DNA of 25,045 nt from IMG/VR virus record IMGVR_UViG_3300036784_000118, positions 1 to 25,045 of that record; one strand, written 5' to 3'. The notes beneath the pieces were generated by a model, which had not been told where the DNA came from, ran no database searches, and saw nothing but the letters and a program-made list of their open reading frames with translations. The DNA is from a virus. Its lineage: Duplodnaviria > Caudoviricetes. Position 1 is the stretch's first letter. Each line of letters begins with the position of its first letter. The position numbers and the translations under genes are program-made. Shown here piece by piece: positions 6,579-21,025 of this stretch.

Positions 6579-6618
6579 TGATCGGCTTTGATCGCGTGTG
6601 ATCGGCTTTGATCGTCTA
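6579..6618 (+). repeat. 10-bp phased TGATCG array 1
   Basis: TGATCG at 6579, 6589, 6599 and 6609. Confidence 0.9.
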
Positions 6619-11687: not shown

Positions 11688-11727
11688 TGATCGCCTTTGA
11701 TCGTCTCTGATCGTTAGTGATCGTCTA
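11688..11727 (+). repeat. 10-bp phased TGATCG array 2
   Basis: TGATCG at 11688, 11698, 11708 and 11718. Confidence 0.9.
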
Positions 11728-12140: not shown

Positions 12141-12319
12141 TCGCAATTCATACAACACACCCAAGCGATCCGCGCGATTCCGAGCGTGGCGGATAGCCCG
12201 ATTTTTATCCATTGATTTAGCGATTTTTTTCGCGCGACTATTTGCGCCGTTCTGGCGTCTGCGGCTTGCCCGCACGGGTCGTTTCACCTTCAGGGCCATG
12301 AGGGTTTCACACGAGCGCG

Positions 12320-12700
12320 ATGATGAAAATTGCGAACATCGTAATTACGTTATGTGTTGGTGATGAAGACGATTATGCACGCGTGCATCAGGCCATCAAC
12401 ACACTTCAGGCGCTGGTGAGCGAGTCATCACACGACACGAAAAAAGTGCCGATCACGGCTCATGAAGACGCTTTCACAGTGAGCGCTTCACACACTCATG
12501 ATCGTGATGCCGTGCTCGCGGCATCCGTTCGCACCCTGCCGATCAAGACGCGTGCGCATCACGCGCTGATGCTGGCGGGCGTGACTACCATTGCGCACCT
12601 TGTGCGTTTAACCCCTAACCAGTTACGCGAGGTGCATGGCATAGGCCGCGCTGCGGCTCACGCCATTGAACGCGCATTGGATGAACTCCATGTGCGCTAA
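12320..12700 (+). CDS. RNA polymerase alpha-CTD-like domain protein
   Basis: The C-terminal SVRTLPIKTRAHHALMLAGVTTIAHLVRLTPNQLREVHGIGRAAAHAIERAL follows the alpha-CTD helix-hairpin-helix pattern. Confidence 0.7.
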   Translation: MMKIANIVITLCVGDEDDYARVHQAINTLQALVSESSHDTKKVPITAHEDAFTVSASHTHDRDAVLAASVRTLPIKTRAHHALMLAGVTTIAHLVRLTPNQLREVHGIGRAAAHAIERALDELHVR

Positions 12701-12736
12701 AACCCCCGGCTGGTTATTTTTCCGATGAGGTGAATC

Positions 12737-13615
12737 ATGGCTACACGAATGAAGAAAGCCGAAGGTGTCGAAGAGCTTGATGTTCTCGAAGTAGAACGCC
12801 GGGTGATCACCGTGGCGGTGTTAGGCCGCACGCCGCTGATTATGAATCGACTCGCGGAAAAGGCCCGCCAGCAATTGCTTTTTCCGCCACCGCCGAAGAC
12901 GCGAGCGGACAAGCAAGCGCACTTGAAGCACGAGCCGTTGCGTGAATTTCGCGATTCCACACACCGCATCCCTGATGAGGCGTGCGCCACTTTGTTAGGA
13001 ATGCCCACGGTGGCATTCAAGGCCGCGATGCGCACCGCCGCGCTTGAGATGCCCGGTGTGAGCAAGGCGCAAATCGGTCGCCTTGTCTTCATCGAAGGTT
13101 TGCTTGTGCCGGTGTACGGCATCCCGCAAATTCATTCCACCGTAGTGCGCATGTCGGACCCTGGCCGCACACCGGACATCCGCACGCGTTGCATCGTGCC
13201 GGAATGGGCGTGCTATGTGTCGGTGTCTTTCCTTGAGCCGCACTTACGCGCGAAGACGGTGGGCAAGTTGCTCGCCGCTGCCGGATTCATCGCGGGTGTA
13301 GGTGACTGGCGAAGCGAGAAAGGCAGTGGCAATTATGGGCAATTCGAGATTGTTGGCGAAGACAATGCCGAGTTTCAAGGGCTCATCGCGAACGGTGGCC
13401 GCGCTGCACAGGTGGCCGCGCTGAATGATCCGGTGCCCTTCGACATCGAAACACAGGAATTGCTTTCGTGGTTCGATGCCGAGCTTGATAGGCGCGGGTA
13501 TCGCAAGGGTGATGGCGATACGGTGAATGCGCCGCCCGCCGCCGCGAATGGTGCGACATCATCGCGCCCGCCGAAGAAAAACGCGGTGCTTCTGCCGCCC
13601 CACGATGCTCACTGA
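12737..13615 (+). CDS. stand-alone Cas7/RAMP-like protein (VIPR-like effector)
   Basis: First-strand motif VLGRTPLIMN, helix motif GMPTVAFKAAMR (compare RAMP iPgsslKGalR), and a Gly-rich loop GVGDWRSEKGSGNYGQFEIV. GAGGTG RBS. No other cas genes are in the window. Confidence 0.75.
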   Translation: MATRMKKAEGVEELDVLEVERRVITVAVLGRTPLIMNRLAEKARQQLLFPPPPKTRADKQAHLKHEPLREFRDSTHRIPDEACATLLGMPTVAFKAAMRTAALEMPGVSKAQIGRLVFIEGLLVPVYGIPQIHSTVVRMSDPGRTPDIRTRCIVPEWACYVSVSFLEPHLRAKTVGKLLAAAGFIAGVGDWRSEKGSGNYGQFEIVGEDNAEFQGLIANGGRAAQVAALNDPVPFDIETQELLSWFDAELDRRGYRKGDGDTVNAPPAAANGATSSRPPKKNAVLLPPHDAH

Positions 13616-13627
13616 AGGAGATAGGCA

Positions 13628-14107
13628 ATGACGACACGCGAGCAAAGTGGCGCGGTGCGTGAGCACCTTCTTTCCCTGTGCGATAAGGCACAAGGCAATC
13701 TCACCGCCGATGCGGTGGTGGCCGAAGCCACGAATGAGGCAAGCCCGCTTCATCACCTTTTCGAGTGGGACGATGCGAAGGCCGCACACGCTCACCGGCT
13801 CGATCAGGCGCGCATTCTGTTGCGCGGCATTCACGTGCGCATAGAAACGCACCGCGAAACGTATGAGGTGCCCGCGTTTTGCCGGAACCCTTCGACATCG
13901 CGCGGATATGCACTGGTGAGTACGCTGAGAAGTGACAAGGCCCGCGCTCGTGAAGCATTGCTTCGTGAGTTCGTGAATGCGCGTGGTGCGCTTGAACGTG
14001 CGCGCTCGATGGCGGTGGCATTGGGTCTCGAAGTCGAGATTGAGCGGCTTCTTTTAGGTGTGCTCGATTTAACGCGCGCCACCGAAGAGGCCGAAGCGCT
14101 TGAGTAA
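13628..14107 (+). CDS. conserved accessory protein between the RAMP gene and the array
   Basis: 159 aa with LTADAVVAEA...SPLHHLFEWDDAKAA..HRLDQARILL and AAGGAG RBS. Its stop codon directly abuts the array. Confidence 0.75.
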   Translation: MTTREQSGAVREHLLSLCDKAQGNLTADAVVAEATNEASPLHHLFEWDDAKAAHAHRLDQARILLRGIHVRIETHRETYEVPAFCRNPSTSRGYALVSTLRSDKARAREALLREFVNARGALERARSMAVALGLEVEIERLLLGVLDLTRATEEAEALE

Positions 14108-14715
14108 GGCAGGCATGGCACGGCAAGGCCGGGTGGTGCGTGGCCCGGTGCGGTAAAGGCATGACAGGCTAGGCGTGGCGGGGCGTGGATGGGTCATGCA
14201 CGGTCAGGCCCGGTGAGGCAGGCTAGGCTTGTCCCGGATGGGCGGATTCCGGTCAGGACTGTTGAGGCAGGCGAGGCGAGGCGTGGCAAGGCGAGCACTG
14301 GCCGGGTGAGACAAGGCGCGGCATGGCAGGCAAGGCAGTGCTAGGCATGCATGGGTGATTCTGGCGAGGCAAGGCAGGCGGGGCAAGGCGTGGGCTGGTA
14401 AGGCGCGGACGGGAAGGGCATGGCGCGGCGCGGTTCGGCAGGCAAGGCCCGGTGCGGATCGGTTAGGCGCGGTCTGGTTCGGCAAGGCGCGGCACGGCGC
14501 GATATGACAGGCATGGCATGGTTCGGATTGTTCTAGCGTGGCACCGGATCGGAATGGCAGGCGGGGCGAGGGTCGGCGTGGTGCTGAGTGTTGCGGTGGT
14601 GCCCGGTCTGCAAAGGCGTGGCGGGGCGTGGGTGGGCAAGGCAGGCGAGGCTGGGGATGGTGCGGTTAGGCGCGTCTGGGCGAGGTTTGGCAGGCATATT
14701 TGAGTAGGCAGGCAT
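14108..14715 (+). ncRNA. GGY-NN pentamer array; putative multi-guide RNA of 10 units
   Basis: About 108 pentamers, about 77 starting with GGC/GGT by manual count. They are split into 10 units of 9-16 pentamers by 4-nt G(G/A)CA punctuation. No credible ORF. Confidence 0.8.
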
Positions 14716-14731
14716 CAGGGAGAAAACTACT

Positions 14732-15643
14732 ATGGATCGCGAAGCATTTTTGACTGAACGAATGAAGGGTATCGGCGGTGCTGATGCTGCGTGTGCATTG
14801 GGTCTTGATCCATACCGCACGCAGCGTGAGCTTTGGTCTCTTAAAACGGGAGAGATTCAAGACGACTTTGAAGATAATCGTTTTACGCGAGCGGGCCGCG
14901 TGCTCGAAGCCGCGATTGCGGATTTATACGCTGAGCAATTCGGCGTGACGTTGCGCAAGCGCATGGTGCCGGTGGTGCATCCGAAGTATCCCTTCATGCG
15001 TGGCAATCTTGATCGAACCATCACCGGACGGCGTTCGGTTCTGGAAATTAAAAACGTTGATTCGCTCGTGCATCGCACATCCGGTGAGTGGGGCGAGCCG
15101 GACACCGATCAGGTGCCACTTCGATACATGGTGCAAATCCGGCATTACTTAATTATCACCGGCTTCGAAGTCGGTTTTTTAGGTGCGCTTGTCGGTGGCA
15201 ATAATTTGCTTCGCTATGTGATCGAACGGGATCACGAAGCCGAAGATTTTATTGTGCAAGCCGAAGCGGACTTCTGGCGCATGGTCGAAAAGCGCGAGCC
15301 GCCTGAGTTCGACTATGCGCACGCGAGCACCTTGGGTTTGCTGAAGCGCCTGCATCCGGGAAGCAATGGATTGAGCAAGCCGCTCAGTGATGAAGCGCTC
15401 GCATGGCATCAGAAGATCGAAGACGCGAGCGCGCAAATCAAGATGCTCGAAGCGCTGAAAGCCGAAGGCAAGTCGCACATCCTGAAAGAGCTTGCGGGTT
15501 ATGGCTTCGGCACGTTCGCGAGCGGTGGCGAGTATCGCTATCGGGAAATTGAGCGTGCGGCCTTCGAGGTGAAGGCGAGCAAGTATCAGGATTTGCGCTT
15601 CTGCAAAAATCAAACGAAGCCCAACACTGCGCGAGGTGCGTGA
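14732..15643 (+). CDS. YqaJ-like (lambda exonuclease family) viral recombination nuclease
   Basis: RMKGIGGADAACALGLDPYRT, G..LE, HPKYPFMRGNLDR, LEIKN and VPLRYMVQIRHY motifs. Confidence 0.92.
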   Translation: MDREAFLTERMKGIGGADAACALGLDPYRTQRELWSLKTGEIQDDFEDNRFTRAGRVLEAAIADLYAEQFGVTLRKRMVPVVHPKYPFMRGNLDRTITGRRSVLEIKNVDSLVHRTSGEWGEPDTDQVPLRYMVQIRHYLIITGFEVGFLGALVGGNNLLRYVIERDHEAEDFIVQAEADFWRMVEKREPPEFDYAHASTLGLLKRLHPGSNGLSKPLSDEALAWHQKIEDASAQIKMLEALKAEGKSHILKELAGYGFGTFASGGEYRYREIERAAFEVKASKYQDLRFCKNQTKPNTARGA

Positions 15644-16746
15644 TGAGTGACATTGTGAATCCCTTCGGCGCTGAGCCGAAAAATTCAGGCGGCGCGGTGG
15701 CCGCGAATGAAGCACAGCGTGCGGTGAGCGAGGTGCAAGCGGCCTTGATCATCGCGCATCACATGCCGCGCGATCAGAAGCGCTCAATGGATCGCATCAT
15801 CAACGAGTGCACGCGTGAAGGCCTTGCCGCCGAAGCTACCTATGAGTATGCGCGGGGTGGCAATTCGATCACCGGCCCATCGATCCGCCTGGCTGAAACG
15901 GCGGCGCGCAATTGGGGCAATTTCGAATCAGGCGTGAAAGAGATTGCGCGGCATGCGGGGTGGTCTGAATGTCAAGCTTATGCTTGGGATCTAGAAACGA
16001 ACACGCGCGAGGTGCGAAGCTTCGCGGTGCGCCACATCCGGGACACCAAGCAAGGCCCGAAGCCGGTGACGGAAGAGCGCGATATTTACGAGTTGACGGC
16101 AAATTATGGCGCACGCCGCAAGCGCGCTTGCATCATCTCGCTCATCCCCGGCGATGTGTGGGCCTGTGCGCTTACGCAAGTTGATGCCACGCTCAAGATC
16201 AAGCTCGATGTCACGCCTGAATTGCTCGCGCAAATGCTTGAGCGCTTCGCGGCCTTCGGTGTCACGAAGGCGATGATCGAAGCGCGCGAGCAAAGAAGGC
16301 TTGATTCGATTTCGCCCGCTGCCGCTCATCGCTTGCGCCGTATTTATAACTCGCTGAAGGATGGCATCAGTGAGCCGAGTGAATGGTTCGATCTGAGCAT
16401 TGCGCCCGCTGATGGCAAGCCCGCGCAAAGGTCATCCACCGAAGTGATGAAGGAGACGATGAAGGCACGCGGCTCATCCACACCCGCCGCGAAGAAGACC
16501 ACCGCGAAGCCGAAGGATAAGGCCGCGCCGCCACCGGCTGAAGAAGCGGATGCACCCACCTATGCGAGCGTGCGTGATGCGCTTGAGCACGCGAAGAGCG
16601 TGGCCGAATTGGGCACCGCTGGCGATCTCATCGAGAGCATCGCGGATGTCGATCAGCGTGAAGAGCTTGGTGCGATTCTCGATGCCCGCCTTCATGAATT
16701 CGAAGAGGCCGGTGATGATGGCCGCGATCCGGGCGAGCCATCATGA
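15640..16746 (+). CDS. conserved phage protein, putative single-strand annealing partner of YqaJ
   Basis: Coupled to yqaJ, with GPSIRLAE..ARNWGN, AYAWDLETN and ARR.RACI motifs. Function is inferred from position only. Confidence 0.55.
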   Translation: MMSDIVNPFGAEPKNSGGAVAANEAQRAVSEVQAALIIAHHMPRDQKRSMDRIINECTREGLAAEATYEYARGGNSITGPSIRLAETAARNWGNFESGVKEIARHAGWSECQAYAWDLETNTREVRSFAVRHIRDTKQGPKPVTEERDIYELTANYGARRKRACIISLIPGDVWACALTQVDATLKIKLDVTPELLAQMLERFAAFGVTKAMIEAREQRRLDSISPAAAHRLRRIYNSLKDGISEPSEWFDLSIAPADGKPAQRSSTEVMKETMKARGSSTPAAKKTTAKPKDKAAPPPAEEADAPTYASVRDALEHAKSVAELGTAGDLIESIADVDQREELGAILDARLHEFEEAGDDGRDPGEPS

Positions 16747-18590: not shown

Positions 18591-18913
18591 CGCGTGCCGC
18601 GCGCCTTCTTCGTCTTGATCTTCTCTTCACTCGCGCGTTGCTTCTCGCGTTTAACTTCGCGCACTGCATCACGCGCCGCGCGAGCCCGATCATCGAACGC
18701 ATCAAGCTCGCGCTCATCCCACATGCGCAAGCGCCCGCCGAAGGTCACACCCTGCGGGAAGACTTCCCTTCTGATCCACCGGTTGAGCGTGGCAATGCCC
18801 ATGTTTCCGTAACGCTCCATCACTTCTTCGAGCGTGAGCCACCGCGCCGATGGTTTGCGCCCACCCTTGCGCGGGGTGGGTTCCTGTACCGGCTCGCCTT
18901 GATTCGCTTCCAT
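18587..18913 (-). CDS. AlpA/Xis-like winged-HTH protein (recombination directionality factor candidate)
   Basis: Start MEANQ at 18913 with AGGAG RBS; WLTLEEVMERYG.MGIATLNRWIRREVFPQGV..GGRLRMWDERELDAF. Adjacent to the integrase. Confidence 0.8.
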   Translation of the reverse strand: MEANQGEPVQEPTPRKGGRKPSARWLTLEEVMERYGNMGIATLNRWIRREVFPQGVTFGGRLRMWDERELDAFDDRARAARDAVREVKREKQRASEEKIKTKKARGTR

Positions 18914-18914
18914 G

Positions 18915-18964
18915 TGATCGCTCCTGATCGGCTGTGATTCGCTGTGATCGTCTGTGATCGTTAT
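18915..18964 (+). repeat. 10-bp phased TGATCG array 3
   Basis: TGATCG at 18915, 18925, 18945 and 18955, with TGATTC at 18935. Overlaps the RBS of the AlpA-like gene. Confidence 0.9.
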
Positions 18965-19033: not shown

Positions 19034-19147
19034 TGTCGTGTCGTGTCCTGTCGTGTTGCGGGTCATGCTGGCGGCTCACGCTGACAGGTTGGCCGGTTTA
19101 GATGGCATTTCATGTCGTGTCCTGTCGCGTCATGTCGCGTTGCGCCG
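19034..19147. repeat. two short TGTCG pentamer tracts
   Basis: 19034-19058 TGTCG TGTCG TGTCC TGTCG TGTTG; 19113-19147 TGTCG TGTCC TGTCG CGTCA TGTCG CGTTG CGCCG. Confidence 0.75.
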
Positions 19148-19307
19148 GGTTGCTGCCGGATTGCGAAAATCAATCGGATGCGCGCGCCGGTATCGTCGCT
19201 ATCGGCGGAAAAAACCCACGGAATGATCTAGCGGCCCGCCACGCCGCTCGCGCGCCTTCGCCGTCATTACCCTGGCCGCGAGGTGCCGCGAAGCCCGCCA
19301 TGAGGCC

Positions 19308-20789: not shown

Positions 20790-20866
20790 CGTCTTTCCTT
20801 CACAGGGTCGGCGTGGGTAAAGGGTGCGCCGTACCTGTTATTTGTGGGTGTTCCAGTGAGCTTCTG

Positions 20867-20896
20867 TGATCGTCTGTGATCGTCTGTGATCGAGAT
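20867..20896 (+). repeat. 10-bp phased TGATCG array 4
   Basis: TGATCG at 20867, 20877 and 20887, plus a degenerate TGAGCT at 20857. Confidence 0.9.
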
Positions 20897-20995: not shown

Positions 20996-21025
20996 TGATC
21001 GGCTTTGATCGGCTTTGATCGTCTC
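20996..21025 (+). repeat. 10-bp phased TGATCG array 5
   Basis: TGATCG at 20996, 21006 and 21016, just upstream of a minus-strand TATAAT (20963-20958). Confidence 0.9.

Follow-up and report, generated by a model that had tools for sequence, protein, structure and literature searches.

The locus and its two protein genes

Besides head genes and a recombination module, the window (the whole 25,045-nt stretch of virus record IMGVR_UViG_3300036784_000118) contains replication genes and a gene for an integrase, which suggests a prophage stage for this phage. A G-rich tract with a 5-nt period sits between a gene for a 159-aa protein (end, 14107) and yqaJ (start, 14732), with a gene for a RAMP-fold protein further upstream (Table 1). 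Region 12300–15200 recurs intact, with zero letter differences, in contigs from two public soil DNA runs, either of which may be the window's source. The window, a 25-kb fragment, holds no CRISPR array and no cas genes: none of the ORFs scanned (12 and 11) belonged to a cas family.

Table 1. Coordinates of the features at the locus (NN, the two variable letters of a pentamer; fractions are matched positions)
Feature	Position	Strand	Remarks
vipr	12737..13615	+	292 aa, RAMP (Cas7/Csm3-like) fold
Partner gene (vap-like)	13628..14107	+	159 aa, phrog_15946, no named family
Staggered vrRNA array	14108..14715	+	10 units, 11 junctions and a short terminal stub
U1	14108..14162	+	10 NN, 1-nt insertion
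U2	14163..14216	+	10 NN; decodes to JAMM motif of Prok-JAB / CBASS Cap3, best 19/20
U3	14217..14265	+	9 NN
U4	14266..14324	+	11 NN; DEVKDLRDKA motif of phrog_33995, 20-21/22
U5	14325..14372	+	8-9 NN, 1-nt deletion, ambiguous parse
U6	14373..14436	+	12 NN
U7	14437..14505	+	13 NN
U8	14506..14555	+	9 NN, 1-nt insertion
U9	14556..14639	+	16 NN
U10	14640..14688	+	9 NN; 18/18 in phrog_3657 genes of two other phages
Own copy of U10 site	15967..15993	+	15/18; in phrog_3657 gene beside yqaJ

What do the two genes upstream of the tract encode? Pfam and PADLOC gave a name to neither. An alignment of 120 homologues of the vipr product served as the basis of both a family profile and a structural model. 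The model (pLDDT 85.5) finds its best fold matches among Csm3/Cas7 RAMPs (Foldseek E 2e-5), with VIA Z-scores of 8.6–8.7 that are only middling, and the profile, searched against PDB sequences, retrieves the Vipr protein of Escherichia phage SUSP1, all else lying at E >= 1.8. Model and profile thus describe a stand-alone RAMP protein with an RRM core, a thumb and a G-loop, as is typical of VIPR, albeit one whose similarity to the 202-aa SUSP1 protein is remote (profile E 4e-5). Residues R151, D190 and W191 align to R138, D177 and W178 of SUSP1 Vipr, which are reported to grip the GGY bases of the guide (bioRxiv 2026.04.26.720927); R151 and D190 are invariant across the 120 sequences. A single-sequence model of the partner gene product was poor (pLDDT 64.5), and its gene occupies the adjacent position of a VIPR accessory (vap) gene. 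Together with the array described below, these features identify the locus as one of VIPR, a gene-silencing system related to CRISPR that preprints of 2026 introduced.

Directly upstream of vipr, the product of an ORF at 12320–12700 includes a domain like the alpha-CTD of RNA polymerase (Pfam E 1e-7); no homologue of this ORF was found in 118 related loci.

A staggered array of ten abutting units

The initial annotation had split the tract into ten guide-sized units by eleven G(G/A)CA shifts of register. Every one of the eleven positions is correct, with GACA at 14163 and 14506 and GGCA elsewhere, and a twelfth G[GA]CAGGC copy, at 14707 in the terminal stub, had been missed. All twelve plus-strand copies of this motif in the window fall within 14108–14707, and the three on the minus strand each lie outside the array. 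Our re-parse likewise reproduced the dinucleotide strings of the units, which measure 48–84 nt, and the need for a 1-nt indel in each of U1, U5 and U8, with two possible parses for U5. GGC or GGT begins 77 of the 107 in-phase pentamers, the NN positions cover all 16 dinucleotides, and 100-nt windows on both strands revealed no run of four or more linked GGY steps elsewhere in the window. With 9–16 NN per unit (8 or 9 in U5), the units span the 9–16 GGY/NN repeats of a VIPR guide.

The units abut directly, with no tail, ribozyme or hairpin between them, and the RNA fold of the whole array (z = -0.01) gives no sign of the structured 3′ tail seen in the type II VIPR of SUSP1. Each 4-nt step amounts to a GGC-AG pentamer whose last G is shared with the next GGC, and the array both begins and ends on such a junction. 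Going by the legend of Fig. S18 in Yoon et al. (bioRxiv 10.64898/2026.04.26.720920), who described VIPR and staggered vrRNA arrays with 1-nt overlaps, this step is exactly the 1-nt, spacer-free vrRNA overlap of those arrays. Ten guides packed into 600 nt represent a natural multiplex design. A near-direct repeat of ~16 nt flanks the array (14100–14117 and 14699–14715), spanning its first and last junction, so that recombination between the copies would remove the array.

Conservation across related loci

The related loci that we collected, 118 in all, comprise 80 from viruses and 38 from genomes; 107 of the 118 have a GGY-NN tract, usually ~500 nt downstream, and 93 a homologue of the partner gene. 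Register shifts in the related arrays measured 4 nt in 841 of the 891 cases parsed, under a penalty slightly lower for 4-nt than for 6-nt shifts and hence mildly favouring the former; GGCA was the commonest (460 of the 841), and GGCAGGC was counted 308 times. Units typically comprised 8–12 pentamers (226 of 268 clean units from 61 loci). Whole-unit gain or loss among relatives, which had been proposed as a check on the guide reading, is evident between L063 and L031, whose Vipr proteins are 97% identical: several common units follow in the same order and others are missing.

Other arrays of the clade have features of their own, such as an extended 13-nt junction recurring between units (L009, 1206–1708) or duplicated runs of whole units (L001, 5834–6304). 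Phages of Gordonia and Mycobacterium smegmatis (Brocalys, Pippy and Ecliptus, among matches H1–H40) have adjacent homologues of vipr, at ~32% identity, and of the partner gene; being cultured, these actinophages could serve as a ready experimental system.

Decoding of the units and phage targets

In the published VIPR rule, NN pairs are read with one skipped base between them, usually the wobble position of a codon (bioRxiv 10.64898/2026.04.26.720920). Three of the ten units (U2, U4 and U10) have targets under such a code, all in codon frame and wobble-aligned. Skips of 0 and 2 gave shuffle-level matches only, in fetched loci that had themselves been chosen by skip-1 patterns; reversed controls accompanied the genome scans, as distinct from the viral and metagenome scans.

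The first 10 NN of U4 match viral contigs exactly 11 times, 10 of these in frame and in one motif, and all eight U4-site genes scanned belong to phrog_33995. Most target sites mismatch the last dinucleotide of the unit. Five of the matches come from phages that have yqaJ and rusA in common with the phage studied here, and the window has no phrog_33995 gene of its own. One U4 candidate (L142) was dropped as a different protein. Separately, in the L146 record, one of the phages with a site for U4 shows a weak similarity to Vipr (E 2e-4; G483:C1:13848-14318).

U10 has three exact viral matches. Two occupy the equivalent position in phrog_3657 genes that are 54% identical to the window's own phrog_3657; the third, L135, was dropped for being out of frame. 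At the phage's own gene, U10 fits 15 of 18 positions (83%), exceeding the 80% cut-off published for natural targets (bioRxiv 10.64898/2026.04.26.720920). This is the highest self-match in the window under skips 0–3, the other nine units reaching at most 14/18 or its equivalent. In ten phage records with a U4 or U10 site, compared over their whole length, no second guide found a match.

The remaining seven units found no accepted target in the sets searched. Neither the first 9 NN of U1 nor U3 matched anywhere in 151 genomes, and U5 and U8 had no target among the fetched loci. U7 and U9 each gave one match against one control in the genomes, and their 10-NN cores gave none in viral contigs; a resemblance of U9 to an SSB motif and of U7 to a motif of a small phage protein found no support. 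For U6, four matches at 21/24 (versus none in the control) fell on heterogeneous, unrelated sites and were not accepted.

Do the units act separately? Codon-frame matches arise unit by unit, agreement beyond the junctions drops mostly to chance level (one flanking position reaches 0.9 for U2), and relatives differ by whole units, all of which argues that they do. That the units are separate guides, as first proposed, is further borne out by the different gene families that the three decoded ones match. Could the tract instead lack guide function and be a degenerate microsatellite born of slippage, or a repeat that belongs to a coding sequence? Its G-rich 5-nt repeat, the indels in three units and the short ORFs that overlap the array would suit this explanation, which is nevertheless contradicted by the target matches, found in codon frame under a 1-nt skip only, and sits poorly with the clade-wide fixed position behind vipr and vap and with the conserved junction. 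We regard it as almost certainly wrong.

A candidate guide against CBASS cap3

U2 decodes to Y-V-G-V-W-H-T-H-P-D/E. We searched 301 genomes from the family of Paraburkholderia nemoris, picked because its prophage (L081) is syntenic, and with up to two mismatches (18–19/20) obtained 17 matches in 16 genomes as compared to one in the control. Among the fetched matches, which omit one G144 site and the G178 site, 14 of 15 lie in Prok-JAB genes; L121, a FYVE protein, was dropped as a target. A CD-NTase and an E1 (ThiF) gene precede the JAB gene in 8 of the 14 genome regions (Pfam), and the best site (19/20) is part of a capV-cyclase-cap2-cap3 operon. The exact pattern is absent from the viral and the metagenome contigs. 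With one base relaxed it is again absent from viral contigs and present in at least 121 metagenome stretches: all 120 relaxed loci analysed, among the matches listed, have an in-frame JAB and the mismatch, and 28 of the 31 with enough upstream DNA, again among the matches listed, encode a CD-NTase and Cap2 (home-built HMMs). A JAB gene following a CD-NTase gene and an E2–E1 cap2 gene is the arrangement of type II CBASS.

The same code recurs in L042, L044 and L055, which carry it at 19, 19 and 18 of 20 NN positions and form one lineage whose Vipr is 46% identical to that of the window. Between the L042 unit and U2, only 16 of 30 scaffold bases are alike as compared to 19 of 20 NN positions (Fisher p 0.0016), and the mismatch of U2 to the Cap3 motif is absent from the L042 unit. 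A stricter screen of the clade yielded no second distant pair with such a contrast between NN and scaffold. Across 506 clade units, repeated matches to CBASS loci were confined to U2 and the L042 unit, in loci selected with the same motif. The simplest reading of these alignments is that the likeness of the NN in the two lineages, a single pair, would stem from selection or convergence.

What would a phage gain from silencing cap3? A true counter-defence, with U2 aimed at cap3 to disable CBASS for the benefit of the phage, is in our estimate a serious candidate that falls somewhat short of an even chance. The clustering of U2 matches on cap3 of type II CBASS and the return of the code on another scaffold speak for it, as do reports of weakened immunity when a B. 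cereus system loses Cap3, and of an E. coli system that requires Cap3 to resist some phages (10.1101/2023.09.29.560134; PMC10097602). For systems of V. cholerae and P. aeruginosa, however, the same sources describe Cap3 as dispensable or as limiting cGAMP, and whether the phage would benefit is uncertain. In the capV-type operons found here, moreover, cap3 comes after effector, cyclase and cap2, and its block may not stop defence; at L156, in contrast, cap3 precedes a SAVED effector gene, making a polar effect of a roadblock conceivable. A guide delivered by an incoming phage would also arrive late relative to pre-made proteins, though the integrase gene hints at a prophage stage, and U2 retains its one mismatch to the common Cap3 motif.

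CBASS operons can reside on mobile elements. U2 might then really be directed at a JAB gene that a rival mobile element carries, or at some other defence or tail gene of the ubiquitin-like kind, with the CBASS matches reflecting a shared catalytic motif. An exact match is missing from all sets searched and 6 of the 14 genome regions have no CD-NTase among the neighbours scanned, as this explanation would allow; yet it would be hard to reconcile with the complete absence of the relaxed pattern from viral contigs and the predominance of CD-NTase–Cap2 operons among the informative metagenome loci listed. We consider it unlikely.

Neither the main text and legends of Yoon et al. (bioRxiv 10.64898/2026.04.26.720920) nor a second VIPR paper, as far as searched, names a CBASS or JAB target, and a literature search that covered the October preprint in part, and text rather than data files, turned up no report of VIPR being directed at CBASS. 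The T4 protein Vs.4, as described in PMC10097602, counters CBASS by sequestering its signal, in contrast to the RNA-guided gene silencing by which U2 would act.

Mode of action and division of the array

Very probably, the array supplies the guide RNAs of a VIPR system encoded by the phage, in which each unit from junction to junction is one guide, and in which the three units matching two phage gene families and, with one mismatch, CBASS cap3 are predicted to have their targets bound and silenced by the Vipr complex. In SUSP1, one Vipr is reported to sit on each RNA pentamer, hiding GGY and leaving the NN to pair with DNA, every third base of which is skipped, such that transcription is blocked (bioRxiv 720920, 720927, 2026.10.15.759431). 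By analogy, the array, presumably transcribed together with vipr and vap, would be coated unit by unit, each pentamer taking up one subunit. At the junction, where GGC-AG overlaps the next GGC, the slip by one base may stop filament growth and thereby mark the separation of units; a nuclease might cut the RNA there, and each resulting complex would bind DNA via the gapped code and impose a transcription block as in SUSP1.

Alternatively, the guide store might never be cut, remaining one long RNA in which the slips merely divide separate Vipr filaments of one unit each. The lack of processing elements between the units and a two-gene module without a nuclease gene would fit, and published sRNA-seq is limited to tailed, ribozyme-spaced or single vrRNAs (bioRxiv 10.64898/2026.04.26.720920). 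Against this, the legend of Fig. S18 in that preprint mentions individual processed vrRNAs, and the junction is conserved in sequence beyond its mere length, as the recurrence of GGCAGGC across the clade attests, and both opens and closes the array. We judge an uncut array to be rather improbable, at roughly one chance in a few, and prefer cleavage into single guides. A bolder extension of the preferred reading holds that phages wield tail-less staggered arrays as multiplexed RNA-guided weapons against rivals and host immunity alike, with the one-base slip itself as the processing signal and Cap3-motif guides on differing scaffolds in distant phages as a broad-range anti-CBASS device; to this we attach only tentative belief.

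Relation to known systems

Like the staggered VIPR loci of Yoon et al., the present one combines vipr, an accessory gene and a GGY/NN array in a phage, with 1-nt overlap of units, and as far as the legend tells there is no architectural difference. The number of repeats per guide and the codon-frame targets in other phages agree with their account of VIPR as well. In our literature search, staggered vrRNA arrays were described in that paper alone, which offers no mechanism or RNA data for them. VIPR and the staggered layout being already published, the finding as such is not new. The initial annotation had named neither VIPR nor the published status of the layout, even as its guide reading of the units stands. 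What this locus adds to a known kind of VIPR is a testable pair of leads: a candidate counter-defence guide and the question of how such arrays are divided. Ten units with three decoded targets provide direct read-outs on how a tail-less staggered array is parted into guides. The portions of the VIPR papers drawn on here present phage VIPR as something that mobile elements use against one another. A cap3 guide, if true, would add host immunity to what the system silences through RNA guides, and might clarify the role of Cap3 in infection.

With the type II VIPR of SUSP1 (PDB 36pp), the locus shares the RAMP fold, the thumb Arg and the G-loop Asp-Trp, as well as the 1-nt-skip code and wobble-aligned sites in conserved motifs. 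Where SUSP1 has four pseudoknot-tailed guides that address a satellite, however, this locus has ten staggered units that lack tails, with lambdoid-type phage genes and cap3 as targets. Class 1 CRISPR-Cas resembles it in the RAMP filament on a guide RNA and in a multi-guide array with n+1 boundary elements, but the window is free of cas genes and CRISPR repeats, and VIPR guides, being non-contiguous, cannot be copied from a target as CRISPR spacers are.

Other repeats in the window

Five intergenic TGATCG arrays of 10-nt period (6579–6614, 11688–11726, 18913–18960, 20863–20892 and 20996–21021), all on the plus strand and none on the minus strand, are possibly binding sites of a phage regulator or of a replication or packaging protein. 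On the minus strand, two short GAC-rich tracts with a period of roughly 5 nt (19034–19165) are located upstream of and inside an AlpA-like ORF, GAC/NN having been published as a non-canonical VIPR motif.
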